From positions 5,169-69,168 of the forward strand of contig VGTB01000001.1 of assembly GCA_016874835.1 (NCBI GenBank): 64,000 nucleotides of DNA. Direction: 5' to 3'. The notes under the pieces are model-generated. The model searched no databases. It was not told the origin of the DNA and saw only the letters and a list, made by a program, of their open reading frames with translations. Origin of the DNA: Deltaproteobacteria bacterium. GTDB taxonomy: Bacteria > Desulfobacterota > Syntrophia > Syntrophales > UBA2185. The position numbers and the translations under genes are program-made. Below, piece after piece: positions 34,706-47,058 of this stretch (the first letter of the stretch is position 1; every line of letters begins with the position of its first letter).

Positions 34706-35173
34706 ATGATGGCGAAAGAATCAATTATCCAAAAGCTGAAAAAACGGGGATTAAGAATCACCCCTCAAAGACTCTCTATCATTAACGTGTTGGTCAAGAA
34801 GGGGCATCTTCATCCAGGTGCACGCTTCATATACAGAGAAGCGAAAAAGGAGGGCACCCGTCTGAGCCTGTCATCCGTCTACGAAAACATAAAGGAGCTA
34901 TGCCGGTGTGGAATTATCAAATCGCTTGAGTTTGATGGCAGAGAGAACCGCTGTGAGGGAAATCTTGAAGAGCACGTCAATCTTATCTGCGAACATTGCG
35001 GGAAGATTATTGATTACGAAGTCCCTGTTTCTTTAGATCAAAGAGAGGTGGCAAAAAGAACGGGCTTTATGATCACAAATAACAGGCTGGAGTATTACGG
35101 ATACTGCGCAGAATGTACTAAAGGCAAAGGGTGGTTACTTTCTGGTCGTAAACTGCACAGCACGCCTCTGTAA
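34706..35173 (+). CDS. Fur family transcriptional regulator (PerR-like by context)
   Basis: LRITPQRLSIINVL is a wHTH, and two CxxC pairs are present (CEHCGK, CAECTK). It sits directly upstream of katG. Confidence 0.8.
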   Translation: MMAKESIIQKLKKRGLRITPQRLSIINVLVKKGHLHPGARFIYREAKKEGTRLSLSSVYENIKELCRCGIIKSLEFDGRENRCEGNLEEHVNLICEHCGKIIDYEVPVSLDQREVAKRTGFMITNNRLEYYGYCAECTKGKGWLLSGRKLHSTPL

Positions 35174-35276
35174 ATGGGTTTCTGTGTTTTAATTTTTTGT
35201 TAATTAATCTGGAGTGGTTCCGGATAAAAGGAGAAAACGCTCAACTGAAGTGTAAAAACGAACATAATGTAAGTAA

Positions 35277-37496
<2,220 letters not shown>

Positions 37497-37680
37497 TCGT
37501 AGCATAAACGTCTTCGAGGACTTCCGACAGGATGGGATCTATACGTTGTATGGGACAGATGGGAAAATACCGACTGTTCAAGGACCGTCATCTTTTTTAC
37601 CCATTGGTCCGGTTTAGCAGGATTGGCAGGTGTGGGAAGAAAGTTTAAAAATAGAAAAGAAACTGATTTTTACCGTAGCA

Positions 37681-37710
37681 AGGCAGAGTCAATTGGCTCT
37701 GCCTTTTTTT
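37681..37710 (+). terminator. Rho-independent terminator downstream of katG
   Basis: An AGGCAGAG / CTCTGCCT stem with an 8-nt loop is followed by T7. Confidence 0.8.
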
Positions 37711-37881
37711 ACCAGTTACGAATGATAATCTTCATTTCACGCCCAACCCAAAAATCATTGATAAAAATGAATAATCGCGATTTACTCGTCTATCCCCTTC
37801 CATGCCGGGTAATGAAGACTTCCTCTTTGGATTCGGGGAATTTGTGAAGAATAAGAATTTCTTTAAAATAACCCATATTTG

Positions 37882-37910
37882 TTGACCTCATTTGATAAAT
37901 CTGTTAATTG
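37882..37910 (+). promoter_or_regulatory. Putative sigma-70 promoter for the 38.0-44.1 kb cluster
   Basis: TTGACC (37882-37887), a 17-nt spacer, then TAATTG (37905-37910). This is the same -10 hexamer as at 34668. It is followed by a ~110-nt leader containing the hairpin GCGGCA-N8-TGCCGC. Confidence 0.35.
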
Positions 37911-38023
37911 CAAAGCCACAAAAACAGGATTTCCGGCGGCACATACATATGCCGCAATATGGATATGTGGGGTTTTCTAACCCTTTCTGAAGATAATTAC
38001 TCCTGTGAGTGAGGTGACGAGTC

Positions 38024-38677
38024 GTGATTGATCTGCATATACATTCGACATTCAGTGACGGGGAACTGATCCCCTCAGAACTTGTGAGAAGGTGCATGGC
38101 TGTGGGTTGCCGTGCCCTTGCCATAACCGACCACGGTGATCATTCCAATATCGATTTCATCATCCCCCGTATTGTAAAGGTCTGTGAGAAGTTATCAGGG
38201 GCTTATGACATAAAGGTCATTCCAGGGATAGAATTGACGCATGTACCCCCTGAGTATATTCCCGAATTGACACAGGAGGCCCGTCTCCTCGGGGCAAAGA
38301 TCGTTGTAGTCCATGGGGAAACGATTGTTGAACCTGTGATTGAGGGAACGAACAATGCTGCCCTGCTGTCTTCCATCGATATTCTTGCCCATCCGGGATT
38401 GATAACGGAAGAGGAAGCGCGCCTTGCGGCAAGGAATTCTATCTGTCTGGAGATCACCACACGCAAGGGGCATAGTCTTACCAACGGGCATGTGGTGAGG
38501 ATGGCGCGTCACGCCGGCGCGTGTCTCGTGTTGAATACGGACAGCCATGCACCGCAGGATCTTACGGGTAAAGAAATGGCCATTAAAATCGCCACAGGTG
38601 CGGGCATGACGGTGGAAGAAACGGAGAGTATGTTCAGGAATTCCGAGATTCTTGTTCAGAGAGCATGGGAAAGGTGA
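38024..38677 (+). CDS. PHP-domain phosphoesterase
   Basis: IDLHIHSTFSDGEL, ITDH and VVVHGE are PHP metal ligands. The start is GTG after GAGGTGA. Confidence 0.75.
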   Translation: MIDLHIHSTFSDGELIPSELVRRCMAVGCRALAITDHGDHSNIDFIIPRIVKVCEKLSGAYDIKVIPGIELTHVPPEYIPELTQEARLLGAKIVVVHGETIVEPVIEGTNNAALLSSIDILAHPGLITEEEARLAARNSICLEITTRKGHSLTNGHVVRMARHAGACLVLNTDSHAPQDLTGKEMAIKIATGAGMTVEETESMFRNSEILVQRAWER

Positions 38678-38701
38678 ACGGTCAGGTGTCGTGAGATACT
38701 T

Positions 38702-39967
38702 ATGATTCCGGTAGCGACTGACAGGAAGAGTTCGGATCCTTTGAGGATATGTCTTTTAACCTATCGCGGTAATCCTGCATGCGGCGGGCAGGGGGTATAT
38801 ATAAAATATCTCAGCCGTGCGCTGCGAGAATTGGGCCATCAGGTCGATGTGATATCCGGTCCCCCGTATCCCGATGTAGCTCAGCACGTGACGCTCCACC
38901 GATTTCCCGGCCTTGATCTCTATAATCCCGATCATCTGTTTAAAGTGAAAAAACTCAAAGACCTGAAGTCGCCGGTAAACCAGCTGGAATTTCTCATCAT
39001 GTGTCTGGGGGGATTTCCGGAACCGCTTACCTTCGGCATGAGGGTATATCGTTACTTCAGAAGAGAGCTACCCCAATACGATGTCGTCCATGACAATCAG
39101 TGTCTCGCATACGGTGTATACAGAATATCCCGCATCGGGTATCCCACGGTCGCGACAATTCATCATCCCATAACCGTCGACCGTGATACGGAGATGGCGG
39201 ATGCGAAAACATGGCGTGAAAAGCTGAAGGTGCGACGCTGGTATGCGTTCATCGGCATGCAGATGAGGGTGTCACGTCGTCTTGCGAGAATAATCACCGT
39301 TTCCGAGTGTTCAAAACAGGATATCGGCAGAACATTTAAAATACCGGCTCACCGGTTTCGTGTTGTTCCCAATGGGATCAGTACCGACTTTTTTTATCCT
39401 CTGCCTCATGTGAAGCGTGCCAGAAATCATATCGTCGTTACGAACAGTGCCGACACCCCTCTGAAGGGGCTTTCCTATCTCCTCGACGCTTTTGCGTCAG
39501 TGAGAAAGAAGCGGGATATCAGGCTAACCGTTATCGGGGCGCCGAAGGAAAATGGAAGGGTCAGGAATTTAGTGAAGGAACTGGGAATTCATGATTGCGT
39601 GACGTTTACCGGGAGAATCGAAAACGAGGAGTTTGCCGGGTACTATGCTAAAGCTACCATGGCCGTTATCCCTTCAGTATATGAAGGCTTTGGAATGCCG
39701 GCGGGTGAAGCCATGGCATGCGGTGTTCCCGTGATAAGCACCACAGGCGGCGCGCTCCCGGAAGTCGTAGGAGATGCGGGGATTCTTGTCCCTCCCCGTG
39801 ATAAGGATGCGCTGGAATATGCAATCGTTACATTACTCGACAACCCTGAAATGTGTGATCGTCTGGGGCGGGCGGGTCTCGATCGTGTGAAAAAAATGTA
39901 CACATGGCACCATGCGGCGAAGAAAATTGAAGATGCATACCGGGAAACAATAGATGCTCACCGTTGA
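38702..39967 (+). CDS. GT-B glycosyltransferase, family 4 type
   Basis: The N-terminal GGQGVYIKYLSRAL is present, and the C-terminal EGFGMPAGEAMACGVPVIST is the EX7E-type motif. Confidence 0.85.
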   Translation: MIPVATDRKSSDPLRICLLTYRGNPACGGQGVYIKYLSRALRELGHQVDVISGPPYPDVAQHVTLHRFPGLDLYNPDHLFKVKKLKDLKSPVNQLEFLIMCLGGFPEPLTFGMRVYRYFRRELPQYDVVHDNQCLAYGVYRISRIGYPTVATIHHPITVDRDTEMADAKTWREKLKVRRWYAFIGMQMRVSRRLARIITVSECSKQDIGRTFKIPAHRFRVVPNGISTDFFYPLPHVKRARNHIVVTNSADTPLKGLSYLLDAFASVRKKRDIRLTVIGAPKENGRVRNLVKELGIHDCVTFTGRIENEEFAGYYAKATMAVIPSVYEGFGMPAGEAMACGVPVISTTGGALPEVVGDAGILVPPRDKDALEYAIVTLLDNPEMCDRLGRAGLDRVKKMYTWHHAAKKIEDAYRETIDAHR

Positions 39968-40658
39968 TTTTAAAAAACTGGATCTGAAGCCTGGAAGCCG
40001 TGTTCTCGATGCGGGGTGCGGTACGGGACGTCATCTCTGTGAAGCCTTCCGTGCCCGGGGCGTTGATGTGATCGGTATCGATGTGAAATGGGAAGATCTC
40101 GCGAAAGCGAAGGGAATGCTTCATCTGATGAAGAATAGCGAGAGCGGGGCATGGATGATCGCCCTGGCGGATGTGACGAAGCTGCCGTTCAAAGATGCAT
40201 CGTTCGATGCGGTCATCTGTTCAGAAGTCCTCGAACACATTCCCGACGGTGTTGCCACCGTGGAAGAACTTCTGAGGGTCATAAAACCCGGAAAGGATCT
40301 CGTCGTGAGCGTTCCTTCTTATCTTCCGGAACGCATATGCTGGGCACTTTCAAAGAATTATCGGAAGGAGCCCGGGGGACATATACGCATATACAAAAAG
40401 AGGACATTACAGGATCTTTTGGAAAAAGCGGGTGCCAGGTGCTGGAAGATCAGTTACAAACATGCCCTCCATTCTCCTTACTGGTGGCTTAAGTGTGTTG
40501 TCGGCCATAACAATGACGGGTCACGACTTGTGAGGATATATAAGAGGTTTCTGGAATGGGATATTGTAAATCATCCTCCATTTGTCAGACTGATCGATGA
40601 ATTTTTGAATCCGTTGATTGCGAAGAGCGTAGTATTGTATCTGAGAAAAGGATGGTGA
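39954..40658 (+). CDS. Class I SAM-dependent methyltransferase
   Basis: VLDAGCGTGRH is motif I and FDAVICSEVLEHI is the post-I/II region. It overlaps the GT gene by 14 nt. Confidence 0.8.
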   Translation: MLTVDFKKLDLKPGSRVLDAGCGTGRHLCEAFRARGVDVIGIDVKWEDLAKAKGMLHLMKNSESGAWMIALADVTKLPFKDASFDAVICSEVLEHIPDGVATVEELLRVIKPGKDLVVSVPSYLPERICWALSKNYRKEPGGHIRIYKKRTLQDLLEKAGARCWKISYKHALHSPYWWLKCVVGHNNDGSRLVRIYKRFLEWDIVNHPPFVRLIDEFLNPLIAKSVVLYLRKGW

Positions 40659-40659
40659 T

Positions 40660-41712
40660 ATGCGACCGAATGTATCTCAGGCTGTTGACGATGTTTTTGT
40701 CGACGTCGATACCATGGCCGCATTTATTGCGGGAATGCAGAAGAAAAATGGAGAAATTCCCTGTTCTCTCGGAGGGAAAACGAACCCGTGGGATCTTGTG
40801 GAAAGCGCTATGGGATTATGCGTGGCCGGGCGGATAACGGAAGCGGAGCTGGCATATGAGTGGATGAAGTGTTTTCAGCTACCGGAAGGAAGCTGGTACG
40901 CGAGCTATAGAGACGGGATTCCCGAAGATAAGACGAGAGATACCAACGTATCGTCGTATATTGCGGTCGGTGTATTTCACCACTACATGATCACCGGTGA
41001 TGTATCCTTTCTCAGGCACATGTGGCCGACGGTCAAAGCGGGGGTTGATTATGCACTCGGCATGCAGGATCCATCGGGTGTGATTTACTGGGCAAAAAGT
41101 GGGGAGGGGGGTGTTGATCGCATGGCCCTCCTGACTGCTTCGAGTTCCGTCTATATGAGCATTAAATGTGCGCTTGCGATCGCATTTCTGATGGGAAAGA
41201 AAGTATCCGGCTGGAAGATGGGGCTTGAGAAGCTGGGCGATGCGATAAGGAACAGGCCCCATCTGTTTAATATGATGAAATCCCGTTATTCCATGGACTG
41301 GTACTACCCCATCCTCTGCGGTGCCGTGAGCGGTGCGGATGCGAGAAAAAGGGTTGATAAGTCATGGGACAAGTTCGTCGTACCGGGATGGGGGGTCCGC
41401 TGCGTTTCAGACAGGCCGTGGACGACTGTGGCGGAGACGTCGGAGCTCATAATCACGCTTGCTGCCATGGAAGAATACGATGAGGCGGCGAAGGTATTCA
41501 GCTGGATACAGGATAAGAGATACGATGATGGCTCCTACTGGATGGGGGTTACCTTTCCCGATGCGGTCGTGTGGCCGGAAGAAAAAACGTCGTGGACTTC
41601 TGCTGCGGTGCTCCTCGCCTATGATGCTTTGAATAACCTGACTCCCGCCAGTCGTCTGTTCAATCATCGTTTCTGGGATTTATCGGAACAATGGTTATCA
41701 TGTCGTCGATGA
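40660..41712 (+). CDS. Alpha/alpha-toroid-like protein (prenyltransferase/terpene-cyclase-like or GH15/GH63-like)
   Basis: It has repeated helical-hairpin signatures with aromatic-rich turns (GSWYASY, GVIYWAK, SMDWYYP, GSYWMG). The family assignment is by pattern only. Confidence 0.4.
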   Translation: MRPNVSQAVDDVFVDVDTMAAFIAGMQKKNGEIPCSLGGKTNPWDLVESAMGLCVAGRITEAELAYEWMKCFQLPEGSWYASYRDGIPEDKTRDTNVSSYIAVGVFHHYMITGDVSFLRHMWPTVKAGVDYALGMQDPSGVIYWAKSGEGGVDRMALLTASSSVYMSIKCALAIAFLMGKKVSGWKMGLEKLGDAIRNRPHLFNMMKSRYSMDWYYPILCGAVSGADARKRVDKSWDKFVVPGWGVRCVSDRPWTTVAETSELIITLAAMEEYDEAAKVFSWIQDKRYDDGSYWMGVTFPDAVVWPEEKTSWTSAAVLLAYDALNNLTPASRLFNHRFWDLSEQWLSCRR

Positions 41713-41751
41713 GAGGAATTTTCCGCCGGGAAATCTGAAGGGTTAAATTCA

Positions 41752-42474
41752 TTGAAAAGGGATCACCGTCCATATTTCGTCAAACGTCTTGATCTTTCAT
41801 TTCAGCAGTGGTACGCGAACCATTTTTTGCGTCCTCACTTTGATTATTTAGGAGAGGGGGCGTTGTTTCTGAGACCCTGGTATGTGGAAGTATTCGGAGG
41901 ACCTATCACAGTTGGTGACTTCGCGAACATCATCGCAACACCGGATAAGAGGGTGCGGTTGACTGTCTGGTCGAACACGGAAGCGGAGGGAAGTATCCAT
42001 ATAGGGAGGTTCTGCTTGATATGTCCCGGTGTTCGGATAAGTTCCGCTTTAGGGATATCGATTGGCGATAGCTGCATGATGGCACAGTCAGTGCACATCA
42101 CCGATTCGGATTGGCATGGTGTATATGATCGGGGAGAGCCCGTGGGCAAGTCAGCAGCGGTGAAAATAGGGAATAACGTCTGGTTGGGTGACAGCGCAAT
42201 AGTATGCAAGGGTGTCACGATTGGAGATAACAGCATTATCGGCGCAGGAGCAGTGGTTATCCGGGATATTCCTCCGGATGTTATTGCCGCGGGGAATCCT
42301 GCTACGGTCGTGAAAAAACTTGATGCGGACAGACCCGTGAGGACGAGGGCCGACTGGTTTGCGGAGCCCGATCTCTTAGCCGCTCAGTTTCGTGAGATCG
42401 ATCGTGAGATGTTAAAGGGAAATTCACTCGTAGGGTGGTTGCGCTCCCTGGTATTTCCGAAAAGGGGAGACTGA
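41752..42474 (+). CDS. Left-handed beta-helix (hexapeptide-repeat) acyltransferase
   Basis: Hexapeptide repeats run VKIGNNVWLGDSAIVCKGVTIGDNSIIGAGAVV. Confidence 0.75.
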   Translation: MKRDHRPYFVKRLDLSFQQWYANHFLRPHFDYLGEGALFLRPWYVEVFGGPITVGDFANIIATPDKRVRLTVWSNTEAEGSIHIGRFCLICPGVRISSALGISIGDSCMMAQSVHITDSDWHGVYDRGEPVGKSAAVKIGNNVWLGDSAIVCKGVTIGDNSIIGAGAVVIRDIPPDVIAAGNPATVVKKLDADRPVRTRADWFAEPDLLAAQFREIDREMLKGNSLVGWLRSLVFPKRGD

Positions 42475-44064
42475 ATGCGGGTTGCCGTGATAGCCCCACC
42501 ATATCCCCTGGAGGAGTGTCCTGCTCCTCCCCTGGGCGTGACGTATGTCGCCGCTGCCTTCGAAGCGGCGGGTGTCGATGTCAAAATTATTGATTACATA
42601 ATATCAAAATACAGCCGTGAAAAGCTGATCCGTGAACTTGATTCCTTCAGACCGCACATTGTCGGTGTTACCTCGGTGACAATGAATTTCCCTGTCGCTG
42701 TTGATATTGTGAGGGCCGTCAAGGTGTATGATGAATCCATATTGACGGTGATGGGAGGGCCTCATGTATCGTTCGCCGCATTCTCCGCGTTATCTGCAAA
42801 TCCGGAAATTGATGTGGTCGTGACAGGTGAAGGCGAACGGACGATTCCCGAGCTTGCGACATGTGTTGCAAAAAAGTCTGGACTCGGGAACGTAAGGGGT
42901 ATCGTCTACCGGCACAATGGTGCGATTGTGAACACCGGATGGCGGGAATTCATTGATGATCTGGATACGCTTCCTCTGCCGGCGCGCCATTTGCTGCCGC
43001 TTTCCCGGTATCAGGCCCTGGGTTATCCGATCAGCATTATCACCGGCAGGGGATGTCCGTATTCGTGCATATTCTGTCTGGGGAGAAGGATGGTGGGGAA
43101 AAAAGTCCGCCAGAGGTCGGCACCTCTGATCGTTGACGAGATAGAACAGATCCTTTCGTACGGACTGAACAGGATAAACATTGCGGATGACCTGTTCACA
43201 TCGAGTAAAAAAAAGGTCAAAGAGGTGTGCAGGGAGATCCATGAGAGGGGATTGAGATTTGCCTGGAGCGCTTTCGCGCGAGTAGACACCGTTGATGGCG
43301 AAATGCTGGAGCTCATGCGCGATACCGGGTGTGACAGCATAAGCTTTGGTGTCGAATCGGGAAACCGGGAAATGTTGAAACGCATAAAAAAGGGAATCAG
43401 CCTGGATGGCGTGAGGCGTGCGGTGAAGCTCTGTAAAGAGGTCGGAATCACTGCCCATGCATCATTCATGGTGGGACTGCCCGGCGAATCGCATGAAACG
43501 CTGAGTGACACCAGGGAATTTGCGGAAAGTCTGGGCATCATGTACGGATACCATTTCTTTTCCCCGTTCCCGGGAACGGAGGCAAGGGAATCCGTAGGCA
43601 GGTATGACCTGGAGATTCTCATGAATGATTGGTGCCGTTACGATGCGAACAGCGCGGTCGTGAGCACGTCAAAACTGTCTCCGGAGGAAATGAATGAATT
43701 TGTTGCCAGCTTCGATAAGGAGATGCAAGGACTCTGGGAAGAAAAGGTGAAAGGGTATCGTGAGGGAACGAATTTGCCTGAGGATGATCTCCGGGTGAAG
43801 GGACACTTCAGGACGCAGCTGGTCTATAAACTCCTGTCGGAAGATCTGATTGAAGACAGCGGTGAAGTACCCGCTGATACTCCCCATTGCCCATTGGGGG
43901 AAGCTTTCGGAGCACTTGTGAGGAGGATTGTTGAGAGAACCGGAGCCGATGAGAATTTGGTTCACGAAACGATTAAAAGTTTCGCTGTCTCAGGCTATAT
44001 AAAATCGCGGGAGATCGGCGGACGTACCGTATGGTACTGGACACATAATAACAGAACGGATTGA
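42475..44064 (+). CDS. B12-binding-domain radical SAM protein
   Basis: The N-terminus is Rossmann-like and B12-binding (MRVAVIAPPYP...VGVTSV). The CX3CX2C motif is GRGCPYSCIFC. The ATG directly abuts the upstream stop. Confidence 0.85.
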   Translation: MRVAVIAPPYPLEECPAPPLGVTYVAAAFEAAGVDVKIIDYIISKYSREKLIRELDSFRPHIVGVTSVTMNFPVAVDIVRAVKVYDESILTVMGGPHVSFAAFSALSANPEIDVVVTGEGERTIPELATCVAKKSGLGNVRGIVYRHNGAIVNTGWREFIDDLDTLPLPARHLLPLSRYQALGYPISIITGRGCPYSCIFCLGRRMVGKKVRQRSAPLIVDEIEQILSYGLNRINIADDLFTSSKKKVKEVCREIHERGLRFAWSAFARVDTVDGEMLELMRDTGCDSISFGVESGNREMLKRIKKGISLDGVRRAVKLCKEVGITAHASFMVGLPGESHETLSDTREFAESLGIMYGYHFFSPFPGTEARESVGRYDLEILMNDWCRYDANSAVVSTSKLSPEEMNEFVASFDKEMQGLWEEKVKGYREGTNLPEDDLRVKGHFRTQLVYKLLSEDLIEDSGEVPADTPHCPLGEAFGALVRRIVERTGADENLVHETIKSFAVSGYIKSREIGGRTVWYWTHNNRTD

Positions 44065-44068
44065 TCTT

Positions 44069-44740
44069 CTAAGCGCGCTGCAATATTCCCAGCGTATTCA
44101 CCATCGGGAGTTCCCTGAAAAGACCGGAAGATACGGCAATGTGATAGACCCGGTACGGCGCCTGTCCCCCTTTCGCAGGATCCGGGAAGATGTCGTGGAT
44201 GGCAAGAAATCCACCCGGCATGAGGTGTGATATCCAGTTGTGGTAATCCGAGGAGACCGCCTCAAAAGTGTGACTGCCGTCGATGAATACCATGCTCAGC
44301 GGTGTCGACCAGAGCCGGGAGACAACATCCGATCGAGCAACGATGGGGACAACCGTATCTTCCAGAGCAAGTTCACGAATCACTTTTCTGAAAATTCTGA
44401 ATGTGTCGATCAATCCGGTTTCTCCGTCAATGAGATCGGGATCAAAGAACTCCTCTCCTGGTTGCTGTTCCTCTGAACCTCTGTGGTGATCAATGGAGAA
44501 AAGGATGCCGCCGTTTTCCTTGCATCCCATTCCTATGTATGCAGCAGACTTTCCGCAATAACTGCCTATTTCCAGACAGGGACCGAATCTGCTGGCCGCC
44601 CGTCCCAGTTCATAAAGCCGTAGTGCCTCGTCGTTTGCCAGGAAACCCTTGAAAACAAAAGATTTTAACTTTTCAATGGAGGCCATATCTGTTGAGCCTT
44701 TCACGAAAGAAGTATCTGTTGTATTGATTGATGTATTCAT
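44069..44740 (-). CDS. Class I SAM-dependent methyltransferase (Methyltransf_24 / CmcI-like)
   Basis: LEIGSYCGKSAAYIG and FSIDHHRGSEE are present. It is convergent, ending 4 nt from the radical SAM stop. Confidence 0.7.
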   Translation of the reverse strand: MNTSINTTDTSFVKGSTDMASIEKLKSFVFKGFLANDEALRLYELGRAASRFGPCLEIGSYCGKSAAYIGMGCKENGGILFSIDHHRGSEEQQPGEEFFDPDLIDGETGLIDTFRIFRKVIRELALEDTVVPIVARSDVVSRLWSTPLSMVFIDGSHTFEAVSSDYHNWISHLMPGGFLAIHDIFPDPAKGGQAPYRVYHIAVSSGLFRELPMVNTLGILQRA

Positions 44741-44866
44741 ATACTTACCGGAGTGCGGTATTGCAAGGGTCTATCTTCTGCGCCACAGGTTTTTTAGTAG
44801 ATTTTTCTTTGTTTCGAAACGGAGATTTGCTTCATCATATTTCCAGGAGAGACATTATTTTTTTGC

Positions 44867-44920
44867 TTGATTATATCAATATGTAGTGGTACTATCATAC
44901 CCTACCCCAATATATTGATG
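44867..44920 (+). promoter_or_regulatory. nrdD promoter with two NrdR-box-like palindromes
   Basis: TTGATT (44867-72), a 17-nt spacer, then TACTAT (44890-95). Box 1 tatCAATATGTAGtgg (44874-89) fills the spacer. Box 2 cccCAATATATTGatg (44905-20) lies 31 bp downstream. Confidence 0.6.
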
Positions 44921-44979
44921 AATATTGAACGGGATACAGAAGGTGCTTTCGTTCCGGAAAGCAGGGAGGGAGGTTTCTC

Positions 44980-47058
44980 ATGCATGAAAAGATAAGAAAA
45001 AGAGACGGTCGCTTGGTGAAGTTTAATGCGGAGAAGATTACCAGCGCAATTGCCAAGGCAGGGGCAGCAACAGGAGAATTCGACGCGGCAGTGGCGAGAA
45101 AACTGACCATAAAGGTTCTCAACTTAGCGGAGAATCTCTTCAATGATGCGATTTTGAATGTTGAGGAAATACAGGATATTGTTGAGGAAATTCTTCTTGG
45201 TTCTCCCTATCGCCGGACTGCAAAGGCCTATATCATATACAGAGATCAGCATGCAAGGTTGAGAGAGATTACCAATAAGATGGAGGTTGATTTAGTTGAC
45301 CAGTACCTGAAGAAAAAAGACTGGAAGATTAATGAAAACAGTAACATGGATTATTCCCTGCAGGGACTGAATAACTATATATCTTCGGAAGTGAGCAAGG
45401 TGTACTGGTTGAACGAGATTTACTCGCCGGAGGTGAGAAAAGCTCATACGGACGGTGATTTTCACATCCACGATTTAAGTCTTCTTTCCGTATACTGTGT
45501 CGGATGGGATCTGTATGATCTCCTCATTGAGGGATTCAGGGGTGTTTCCGGGAAGGTGGAAAGCAAACCGGCGAAACATCTTCGGAGCGCCTTGGGACAG
45601 GTAGTGAATTTCTTTTATACCCTCCAGGGGGAAGCGGCGGGAGCACAGGCATTCTCCAATTTTGATACCCTTCTGGCACCCTTTATTCGGTATGACGGTT
45701 TGAGTTATACGGAGATAAGGCAGGCATTGCAGGAATTTATTTTTAATATCAATGTGCCGACAAGGGTAGGATTTCAAACTCCGTTTACGAATGTCACCCT
45801 TGACGTAACTATGCCCAGGTATTATGCGGAACAGAATGTTATTATCGGTGGCAAGCCGCAGAAGGAAACGTATGGTGAATTCCAGGAGGAAATGAATCTG
45901 TTCAATAAGGCGTTCCTCCAGGTCATGGCGGATGGGGATGCCAAGGGAAGAGTTTTTACGTTTCCGATACCGACATATAATATCACAAAAGATTTTAACT
46001 GGGATGATGCCAATCTTGTATCCCTGTGGGAGATGACCGCAAAGTATGGTGTGCCTTATTTTTCCAATTTTATCAATTCGGATATGAAGCCGGAAGATGC
46101 CAGGAGCATGTGCTGCAGACTCCGTATTGATAACAGGGAATTGGAGAAAAGAGGAGGGGGCTTGTTTGGTTCAAATCCATTAACCGGTTCCATCGGTGTG
46201 ATTACCATGAATATGCCGAGAATCGGGTACTTGTCCTCTACTGAGGATGATTTCATCTCCCGCCTTGAGAGACTGATGGTTATTGCCAAGGAAAGCCTCG
46301 AAACCAAGAGAAAAGTTCTCGAGAAATTTACGGATGGAAATCTCTATCCCTATACGAAGTATTATCTCAGAGACATTAAAAAACGTTTTAATGCGTACTG
46401 GAAGAATCACTTTTCAACGATCGGGCTCGTGGGCATGAACGAAGCGTGTCTCAACTTCCTGGGTAAAAATATCGCGACGCCGGAAGGCCAGGAATTCACT
46501 CAGAAAATACTGGATTTTATGAGAGGTAATCTTTTGGAATTTCAGAAGGAAACGGGGAATAATTACAATCTTGAATCGACTCCCGCAGAAGGAACTTCTT
46601 ACCGTCTTGCGAGAATTGACAAGGTGAAATATCCGGATATGATCTTTGCCAATCAGAACAGCGGGAGTGAGCCCTTCTACACGAATTCATCTCAACTGCC
46701 GGTAAATTTCACGGAGGATATTTTTGAGGCCCTTGACCTGCAGGATACCATCCAGTCGAAATACACCGGAGGGACCGTCTTCCATACATATGCCGGCGAG
46801 CGTATTCAAAATTCTGATGCGGTGAAAACACTCGTCAAGAAAATCTGCACGTCCTACCATCTCCCTTACCTGACCTTTACGCCTACATTCAGTGTCTGTC
46901 CAACTCACGGATATTTGAGCGGTGAGAAGGATCGATGTCCAACCTGCGCGGAGCCATGTGAAGTATATTCGCGGGTGGTCGGTTATTTACGGCCTGTGAA
47001 GCAGTGGAACCGGGGCAAGCGGGAGGAATTCAAAACCAGAAGAGCCTTCAACTTTTAA
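44980..47058 (+). CDS. nrdD: Anaerobic ribonucleoside-triphosphate reductase (class III)
   Basis: It has an N-terminal ATP-cone (KRDGRLVKFNAEKI), a C-terminal Zn site CPxxGY..CPTC and the glycyl-radical region RVVGYLRPV. Confidence 0.93.
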   Translation: MHEKIRKRDGRLVKFNAEKITSAIAKAGAATGEFDAAVARKLTIKVLNLAENLFNDAILNVEEIQDIVEEILLGSPYRRTAKAYIIYRDQHARLREITNKMEVDLVDQYLKKKDWKINENSNMDYSLQGLNNYISSEVSKVYWLNEIYSPEVRKAHTDGDFHIHDLSLLSVYCVGWDLYDLLIEGFRGVSGKVESKPAKHLRSALGQVVNFFYTLQGEAAGAQAFSNFDTLLAPFIRYDGLSYTEIRQALQEFIFNINVPTRVGFQTPFTNVTLDVTMPRYYAEQNVIIGGKPQKETYGEFQEEMNLFNKAFLQVMADGDAKGRVFTFPIPTYNITKDFNWDDANLVSLWEMTAKYGVPYFSNFINSDMKPEDARSMCCRLRIDNRELEKRGGGLFGSNPLTGSIGVITMNMPRIGYLSSTEDDFISRLERLMVIAKESLETKRKVLEKFTDGNLYPYTKYYLRDIKKRFNAYWKNHFSTIGLVGMNEACLNFLGKNIATPEGQEFTQKILDFMRGNLLEFQKETGNNYNLESTPAEGTSYRLARIDKVKYPDMIFANQNSGSEPFYTNSSQLPVNFTEDIFEALDLQDTIQSKYTGGTVFHTYAGERIQNSDAVKTLVKKICTSYHLPYLTFTPTFSVCPTHGYLSGEKDRCPTCAEPCEVYSRVVGYLRPVKQWNRGKREEFKTRRAFNF

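Follow-up and report, generated by a model that had tools for sequence, protein, structure and literature searches.

A probable 3-O-methylmannose polysaccharide-type gene cassette with a predicted acetyltransferase and a predicted B12-dependent radical SAM enzyme in an anaerobic member of the Thermodesulfobacteriota

What would a bacterium make with a tight row of genes for a family 4 glycosyltransferase (GT4), two S-adenosylmethionine (SAM) methyltransferases, a toroidal protein, an acyltransferase, and a B12-binding radical SAM enzyme (rSAM)? Such a row lies in the 64,000-nucleotide (nt) stretch analyzed here, called the window (contig VGTB01000001.1 of a Deltaproteobacteria bacterium, assembly GCA_016874835.1, positions 5,169 to 69,168). 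A first-pass annotation made from the letters alone had noticed the row and could not map it to a named pathway. We found clear homologues of its core genes, likewise ordered, in the characterized cluster ManT-pMeT3-MmpH-MeT1 for 3-O-methylmannose polysaccharide, or MMP (PMC9883506). From the comparisons below, the six genes from 38702 to 44740 very probably constitute an MMP-type cassette in this Syntrophales-like deltaproteobacterium. As its product we predict a polymethylated mannan of the MMP kind that stays in the cytoplasm; both its O-acetylation and its further modification by a radical reaction are probable, and C-methylation is the likeliest kind of the latter.

In mycobacteria the MMP cluster consists of ManT, pMeT3, MmpH (an endomannosidase), and MeT1, and corresponds to MHAS_04402-04405 in Mycobacterium hassiacum and MSMEG_6481-6484 in M. 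smegmatis (PMC9883506, Maranha et al. 2023). The three of these enzymes that have solved structures are each by far the best PDB match (phmmer) of their window counterparts. The GT4 protein matched M. hassiacum ManT (7qsg) over residues 11-416 with an E value of 7.3e-108, ahead of the runner-up (3e-33) by about 75 orders of magnitude. The "toroid" of the earlier description has no Pfam hit and matched M. hassiacum MmpH (7qsj) over residues 20-335 with an E value of 2.2e-93; the fold call was right, as this is an (alpha/alpha)6 enzyme and an MmpH homologue. The sole match of the convergent methyltransferase was to the entries 6g7d/6g80/6h40 (E value, 1.1e-54; residues 31-222), with a DHH-GSE stretch conserved in the alignment. 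The depositors named this protein "Methyltransferase domain protein," and we take it to be M. hassiacum MeT1, a 1-O-methyltransferase. In tblastn comparisons with the Mycobacterium loci, the window GT4 is 42-45% identical to the gene in the same position, the SAM methyltransferase that follows it 41-45%, the MmpH-like protein 47-49%, and the MeT1-like protein 40-44%.

The remaining core gene, a methyltransferase, matches Methyltransf_23/31/11 in Pfam and falls below every NCBIfam cut-off. Full-length comparison shows 41-46% identity (E values of 1e-56 to 1e-63) with the gene that intervenes between ManT and MmpH in loci of Mycobacterium, Streptomyces, and Gammaproteobacteria. By position and sequence, it is the predicted counterpart of pMeT3, a putative 3-O-methyltransferase in the mycobacterial literature (PMC9883506). 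Thus, everything about an MMP cluster that could be tested here was found: matches to ManT, pMeT3, MmpH, and MeT1, and their conserved arrangement. The features of the locus are listed in Table 1.

Table 1. Features of the MMP-type locus and its flanks (positions in the window)
Feature	Coordinates	Strand	Remarks
Terminator-like hairpin, 3' of katG	37680-37705	+	11-pair stem, 6 G-C pairs, then TTTTT
PHP-family phosphoesterase (NF004981)	38024-38677	+	Flanking backbone gene
ManT-like GT4 alpha-(1->4)-mannosyltransferase	38702-39967	+	Cassette gene 1
pMeT3-like SAM methyltransferase, putative mannose 3-O-methyltransferase	39954-40658	+	
MmpH-like (alpha/alpha)6 endo-alpha-(1->4)-mannosidase, the "toroid" of the first-pass annotation	40660-41712	+	
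Left-handed beta-helix (hexapeptide, LbH) O-acetyltransferase, accessory, putative	41752-42474	+	TTG start
B12-binding radical SAM enzyme (rSAM, class B), accessory	42475-44064	+	
Convergent MeT1-like 1-O-methyltransferase, final cassette gene	44069-44740	-	Methyltransf_24

Residues that matter for catalysis in the mycobacterial enzymes could be mapped onto two of the window proteins. According to the published residue list (PMC9883506), the ManT-like protein keeps Gly15 (as G28), His142 (H154), Lys240 (K255), Glu313-Gly-Phe (E328-G-F), and Glu321 (E336); Lys240, Glu313, and Glu321, all kept here, are essential by mutagenesis (PMC9883506). In the MmpH-like protein, E259 corresponds to the catalytic base Glu262, and Glu265 (E262), Trp49 (W44), Asp50 (D45), Asn101 (N96), Thr163 (T159), Met215 (M212), Tyr219 (Y216), and Trp315 (W312) are likewise conserved; Phe102 is replaced by Val and the neighboring His51 by Leu. 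Mutagenesis of MmpH showed that Glu262 and Asp50, both kept here, are essential (PMC9883506).

We scanned one genome per species with an alignment of the MmpH family, and compared the window proteins with the returned loci by tblastn. MmpH relatives were present in at least 600 genome stretches. The loci, including those from a query with the PHP protein, were grouped by the identity of their MmpH to that of the window. Those with 49% or more (the close loci) are from Thermodesulfobacteriota-type metagenome-assembled genomes (MAGs) of Syntrophaceae, Smithella, Desulfobacteraceae, and others; those below 49% (the distant loci) are from Actinomycetota, Gammaproteobacteria, Chloroflexota, and one alphaproteobacterial MAG. 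ManT is upstream of MmpH in 30 of 44 close and all 47 distant loci, a pMeT3-like gene is upstream in 30 of 44 and 44 of 47, respectively, and a convergent MeT1 lies within 4.5 kb in 12 of 27 and 28 of 37. All five Mycobacterium loci (L047, L048, L050, L059, and L063) have ManT(+), methyltransferase(+), MmpH(+), and MeT1(-), the order and strands of the window.

The two accessory genes follow the close group. LbH is directly 3' of MmpH in 39 of 42 close loci versus 1 of 44 distant loci (L052), and the rSAM gene is within 3 kb of MmpH in 24 of 35 versus 0 of 40. Among the examined loci, the LbH and rSAM pair occurred only in Thermodesulfobacteriota, which are anaerobes. The full array of ManT, pMeT3-like gene, MmpH, LbH, rSAM, and MeT1(-) was found in L001, L004-L007, L009-L011, L028, L115, L127, L149, and L151. 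The first-pass annotation had proposed conservation of gene order across genomes as a check on the cluster; the order recurs in dozens of independent loci, far beyond chance.

The same annotation had likened the enzyme classes to those of the mycobacterial methylglucose lipopolysaccharide (MGLP) locus and had proposed a phosphoester-hydrolysis step, to be carried out by the PHP protein. On that account the cluster would encode an MGLP-like, or some other unnamed, pathway to a methylated and acylated glycolipid with a dephosphorylation step. The enzyme classes do overlap with those of the MGLP locus (a GT4, SAM methyltransferases, a hexapeptide acetyltransferase, and a glycoside-hydrolase-like protein), and the PHP gene is codirectional with the cassette and only 24 nt upstream of it. 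However, the best characterized relatives of the core proteins are MMP enzymes by at least 50 orders of magnitude in E value, and a domain search of the cluster found none of the hallmarks of MGLP synthesis: no glucosyl-3-phosphoglycerate synthase (GpgS, GT81) or phosphatase, no GH57 branching enzyme, and no Rv3032-type glucosyltransferase. The locus matches the methylmannose cluster, and the features that would mark an MGLP locus were not found in it.

The PHP gene itself (NF004981, 319 bits versus a cut-off of 117) also keeps its chromosomal position where there is no cassette. We searched the PHP protein against metagenome contigs and counted 52 close homologues, 59-76% identical, whose contigs continue for 1.5 kb or more downstream. 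ManT was 3' of PHP in 14 of these and absent in 38. The loci without ManT have LptG-LptF upstream on the opposite strand and NrdD-NrdG-HD/GAF downstream, the same genes that flank this region of the window. Examples of such LptGF/PHP/NrdDG loci without the cassette are L086, L088, L090, and L096, and also L095, L097, L101, L102, L105, and L109; in the window, L007, L009, L010, and L028, the six-gene cassette stands between PHP and NrdD. The closest relatives of the PHP protein come from loci with the cassette (L084 and L085) and without it (L086 and L088). Conversely, about half of the Thermodesulfobacteriota-type MMP loci for which upstream sequence was available have no PHP gene (for example, L002), among them L001, L004, L005, and L011, which have the MMP genes together with LbH and rSAM. 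Because PHP stays in the LptGF/PHP/NrdDG backbone where the cassette is absent, we assign it on synteny as a backbone neighbor and not as a member of the cassette or of the pathway, and the proposed hydrolysis step falls away. Given the 24-nt gap, PHP may nevertheless be cotranscribed with the cassette. Taking these results together, we regard a glycolipid pathway of the MGLP kind as very improbable.

The annotation's broader guess, a methylated or acylated saccharide, was right in kind, as the product would be a methylated, probably acylated, cytoplasmic oligo- or polysaccharide; its PHP step and MGLP comparison did not survive. Its structural description of the locus was accurate: the seven open reading frames (ORFs) have the coordinates and strands that it gave, with junctions of +24, -14, +1, +39, and 0 nt and with the convergent stops of the rSAM and MeT1 genes 4 nt apart. 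Thus, the ManT- and pMeT3-like ORFs overlap by 14 nt, and the rSAM ORF begins directly at the LbH stop. Pfam and NCBIfam bore out the domain classes (PHP, GT4, class I methyltransferase, hexapeptide transferase, B12-binding plus Radical_SAM, and Methyltransf_24). As had also been stated, a domain search of the cluster found no export, sugar-nucleotide, or priming-transferase genes, and this is not a standard O-antigen or exopolysaccharide locus. No transmembrane- or signal-like segment was found in any of the seven (maximum KD19, 1.56), which fits a cytoplasmic product, as MMP is.

The LbH protein is a Hexapep protein by Pfam. Its best solved relatives are maltose and galactoside O-acetyltransferases (3hjj, E value of 1.9e-21; 1kqa, 5.9e-21; residues 80-191); it scores below the NCBIfam equivalog cut-offs and carries an extra N-terminal region of 70 residues. 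Because of these low scores, we classify it, from its sequence, as a distinct subfamily of the maltose/galactoside-type hexapeptide O-acetyltransferases. Full-length homologues (41-42% identical; E value, ~1e-63) occur in two Cellvibrionales-type MMP clusters, L044 and L052. In L044 the homologue follows MeT1 and does not adjoin MmpH. In L052 (4807-10130), from a Cellvibrionales MAG, ManT, the pMeT3-like gene, MmpH, and LbH are followed by a codirectional gene for GDP-mannose pyrophosphorylase/phosphomannose isomerase, which supports mannose as the sugar.

In Desulfobacterales-type MAGs (L013, L015, L017, L019-L022, L024, L026, and L030-L032) we observed isolated MmpH-LbH pairs among unrelated neighbors, with neither ManT nor the methyltransferases within 10 kb; in L019 the neighbors are old yellow enzyme, DUF1848, and Dus. 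Such freestanding pairs, and the fact that MmpH is a hydrolase, would suit a mainly catabolic or salvage locus in which MmpH and LbH process an exogenous or stored methylated mannan. For the window we consider this hardly credible, as the locus holds a complete biosynthetic set, including ManT and both methyltransferases, and has no transporter or secretion signal; moreover, mycobacterial MmpH is needed for the synthesis of MMP and not for its breakdown alone (PMC9883506).

The rSAM protein matches PF04055 (Radical_SAM; E value, 5e-27) and, in its N-terminal part, PF02310 (B12-binding; 1.5e-25). Its CxxxCxxC motif (C194/C198/C201) is invariant in 40 homologues. An AlphaFold2 model (pLDDT of 88.9) matched only cobalamin-dependent rSAMs in Foldseek (TsrM, AprD4, OxsB, MgmA, CysS, and TokK), the nearest by root mean square deviation (rmsd) being MgmA (9ccb; 3.3 Å, 26% identity), a protein methylase (PMC11796369). 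The protein is far below all curated NCBIfam cut-offs (199 versus 481 for BchE, which with ApyD, HpnJ, and PhpK gives the best scores, and likewise for these three, HpnR, and MgmA), and the structure search places it at the level of class only, so we rejected its assignment to any of these six families. In architecture and modeled fold it appears to be a class-B B12-rSAM that lies outside any characterized family. Residues ~403-529, about 125 in all, are modeled as two long helices and a winged-helix-like unit; the region is conserved, with W520, W522, G507, and Y508 invariant or nearly so. We identified no equivalent of this C-terminal extension in solved B12-rSAM structures; it could serve in substrate binding.

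The rSAM family is large, with ~2,700 sequence clusters at an E value of ≤0.001; among the best 120, one MAG protein is identical to that of the window and the others share 59-66% identity with it. The MmpH clade is similarly large and tightly conserved, and many rSAM and MmpH hits pair up by the length of their contigs. In every rSAM locus that we examined, the gene adjoins at least one MMP gene: this holds for the 25 rSAM loci reached by MMP-gene queries and for all 3 reached by querying with rSAM homologues. Of the latter, L164 has the full array of PHP, ManT, pMeT3-like gene, MmpH, LbH, and rSAM; L165 has MmpH, LbH, and rSAM; and L163 (7023-10285) has a PlsC-type acyltransferase, rSAM, and MeT1(-), with the other MMP genes not nearby. 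A second rSAM lineage, 40-41% identical, is linked to MMP genes in the Desulfarculus-type loci L027 and L029, in a different gene order. In L029 (10989-13249), rSAM and MeT1 share a strand, with a 4-nt overlap between the stop of the former and the start of the latter. That rSAM stays with MeT1 in both L163 and L029 hints that it might act at or near the step, or the chain end, handled by MeT1.

These linkages bear on a more modest explanation, that the four core genes make ordinary MMP and that LbH, rSAM, or both are merely linked neighbors acting on a lipid, a cofactor, or a protein. The winged-helix-like domain of rSAM could bind another macromolecule, its nearest solved relative by rmsd acts on protein, and in L163 it adjoins an acyltransferase without ManT or MmpH; in addition, 11 of 35 close loci lack rSAM, and no NCBIfam or Pfam model links it to carbohydrates. 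On the other side, the association with MMP genes holds in all of the loci just described and persists at 40-41% identity in a second gene order, with apparent translational coupling to LbH in the window or to MeT1 in L029. Even the L163 rSAM keeps its MeT1, and the only MeT1 substrate that we know of is a methylmannoside. We judge the linked-neighbor explanation improbable, and we lean toward the view that rSAM modifies the polymer.

What rSAM would do to the polymer is a separate matter. Most characterized class-B members are C-methyltransferases, and some of these act on sugars or methoxy groups (GenK, GenD1, and the iterative CysS); others, BchE, HpnJ, and OxsB, catalyze different reactions, and AprD4 does not bind B12 (PMC12931638). 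Because most characterized members C-methylate, C-methylation is the most probable single outcome, and we put it forward tentatively, by analogy. The extra radical C-modification suggested in the first-pass annotation is a reasonable candidate. We also considered a peptide substrate, which relatives might encode in the small ORFs that separate rSAM from MeT1, and rejected it; these ORFs lack conservation, and the window has none of them (L009 13665-13904 and L010 13726-13935 are Fis-type helix-turn-helix proteins, and L001 13818-14586 is a putative toxin-antitoxin pair).

The proposed pathway would run as follows. The MmpH-like endomannosidase would cut mature chains to tetra- to octamannosides that prime new chains ("partially conservative replication"), and ManT would use GDP-mannose to extend these alpha-(1->4)-oligomannosides. 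3-O-Methylation of the added mannoses would fall to the pMeT3-like enzyme, and the MeT1-like enzyme would cap free reducing ends by 1-O-methylation. LbH would probably O-acetylate mannose residues, giving an acetylated MMP, and rSAM, in the likeliest of its possible reactions, would C-methylate an unactivated carbon, either in the sugar itself or in one of its O-methyl or O-acetyl groups. The polymer would be cytoplasmic, as all the gene products are predicted to be soluble. We infer the core steps from M. hassiacum biochemistry (PMC9883506), and we likewise infer the identity of the product, the site of acetylation, and the rSAM reaction. Lipid binding is known for polymethylated polysaccharides, and a role in binding or sequestering long acyl chains in syntrophs that oxidize fatty acids or alkanes is a speculation that rests on this behavior.

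Several observations weigh against this assignment or against parts of it. To our knowledge, pMeT3 has never been characterized biochemically, in mycobacteria or elsewhere. At 42-49% identity to the characterized enzymes, donor and acceptor specificities could differ. In the window protein, Asn replaces the Asp293 that contacts guanine in ManT, and Asp47 of MmpH, one of two candidate catalytic acids, is Asn42, which could make the hydrolase slower or alter it. Linkage is not universal: Desulfobacterales-type loci have only MmpH-LbH, L002 has ManT, the pMeT3-like gene, MmpH, and LbH with neither rSAM nor MeT1, and the convergent MeT1 is found in fewer than half (12 of 27) of the close loci. No LbH homologue was found within 10 kb of the MMP genes in the examined Streptomyces loci (in L039 the 4- to 5-kb gap between MmpH and MeT1 holds only MDMPI, amidase, and no-hit ORFs), so the parallel with the acetylated polymer of Streptomyces, discussed below, has no genetic anchor. 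Finally, "C-methylation" expresses only what is usual for the class, in which nonmethylating enzymes also exist.

The Asp47-to-Asn change is a minority natural variant, present in 16 of 120 close relatives of the MmpH-like protein. Across the candidate acids Asp47 and Asp50, mycobacteria and most Syntrophales have the motif D-x-W-D, the window protein and those 16 relatives have N-x-W-D, and 49 of 78 distant representatives have D-x-W-N. Nearly all MmpH-family sequences have at least one Asp at these positions, which suggests that either residue can act as the acid. This natural variation among D-x-W-D, N-x-W-D, and D-x-W-N bears on the identity of the catalytic acid of MmpH.

We also examined the surroundings of the cassette for regulatory signals. 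A strong hairpin with a T run does lie between katG and the cluster, as described before, and marks an upstream boundary. The reported promoter, TTGACC-17-TAATTG, is present as a string at 37881-37909, but its -10 element matches TATAAT at only 2 of 6 positions and a consensus scan did not call it, which leaves this promoter unsupported. The ~110-nt structured leader said to follow it folds no better than shuffled sequences (z = -1.06; 28 of 200 shuffles fold as well). A search of 37400-45100 gave zero matches to Rfam families at an E value of ≤1. A cobalamin riboswitch or other structured leader, considered because of the B12 enzyme, was ruled out by this null result together with the z score of the leader. 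The best sigma-70-like site of the region, ATGATA-17-TATAAT, has an extended TG and 10 of 12 matches; it occupies 44898-44870 of the minus strand, 5' of the MeT1 start in the 239-nt divergent intergenic region between MeT1 and NrdD.

By Pfam and NCBIfam, the locus is flanked by PerR and KatG upstream and by NrdD and NrdG downstream. G+C content is ~51% in the cassette and PHP versus 43-46% in LptFG and NrdDG. The PerR-KatG block (34706-37496) stands out, with katG at 61.4% G+C versus 47.9% for the window and 44-46% for its neighbors, and in the relatives L028, L084-L086, and L088 LptF is followed directly by PHP without PerR-KatG. For these two reasons, the anaerobe seems to have acquired this peroxide-defense pair separately, as a block of its own.

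MMP and MGLP are regarded as specialities of mycobacteria and other actinobacteria that bind long-chain acyl chains and modulate fatty acid metabolism. The published genomic survey of MMP genes was restricted to Actinobacteria (PMC9883506), and our literature search, which did not cover the 2019 PNAS study of MeT1, found no report that places an MMP cluster outside Actinobacteria or links one to radical SAM enzymes. The gene complements described here show a predicted four-gene MMP system also in anaerobic Thermodesulfobacteriota, marine Gammaproteobacteria, Chloroflexota, and an alphaproteobacterial MAG. The complete ManT-pMeT3-MmpH-MeT1(-) set is present in many Gammaproteobacteria (Halieaceae, Cellvibrionales, Pseudomonadales, and Spongiibacteraceae), including the cultured Pseudomaricurvus hydrocarbonicus JCM 30134 and Seongchinamella sediminis U0301, and in the alphaproteobacterial MAG; a Chloroflexota variant has two tandem copies of ManT. 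The MMP-cluster loci in Gamma- and Alphaproteobacteria and Chloroflexota are L035, L040-L044, L052-L054, L057, L061, L065-L067, L069, L072, L077, L079, and L080, and L036, L045, and L058.

A bolder proposal would be that Thermodesulfobacteriota of the Syntrophaceae, Smithella, and Desulfarculus types make a cytoplasmic MMP-like mannan that is O-acetylated and modified by a dedicated B12-rSAM; we hold this to be possible but somewhat doubtful. The radical tailoring could be, by analogy, C-methylation of a sugar carbon or a CysS-like extension of an O-methyl or acetyl substituent. If the proposal is true, syntrophs that oxidize fatty acids and alkanes would have a polysaccharide that radical SAM chemistry makes more hydrophobic and that sequesters lipids. 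The use of MMP-type polymers would then extend widely among bacteria, Halieaceae, Cellvibrionales, and Chloroflexota included, and would not be peculiar to actinobacteria. The spread of the four-gene set described above in itself offers tractable, nonpathogenic models, and it prompts the question of how these polymers function in organisms that lack fatty acid synthase I (FAS-I) or mycolic acids.

Compared with the mycobacterial MMP cluster, the window cassette has the same four genes, order, and orientation, 42-49% identity, nearly all of the mapped ManT and MmpH residues, and the same lack of export genes. It differs in its host, an anaerobic member of the Thermodesulfobacteriota, in the insertion of LbH and rSAM between MmpH and MeT1, and in the two Asp-to-Asn changes (MmpH Asp47 and ManT Asp293). 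The MGLP locus (Rv3030-Rv3037c) is alike in directing a cytoplasmic, polymethylated, acylated polysaccharide with the same broad enzyme classes, but its sugar (glucose), linkages, and enzymes are different, and no window protein is closest to an MGLP enzyme. Streptomyces griseus is described as making an acetylated methylmannose polysaccharide, AMMP (Harris and Gray 1977, as cited in PMC9883506). AMMP is thus a precedent for O-acetyl groups on MMP-type polymers, the outcome expected of LbH. We know of no acetyltransferase identified for AMMP and of no radical modification of it. With the class-B rSAMs (MgmA, TsrM, TokK, CysS, and GenK/GenD1, as well as OxsB, BchE, HpnJ, and AprD4), the window enzyme shares a B12-binding Rossmann domain, a radical-SAM barrel, the CxxxCxxC motif, and a predicted fold that matches the solved members; it departs from them in scoring under all family cut-offs, in its C-terminal extension, and in its MMP-cluster context. 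That context offers a candidate substrate for a large orphan B12-rSAM family, and the LbH/rSAM pair suggests that a polysaccharide undergoes a radical modification not described before, one without a counterpart in the aerobic lineages examined.

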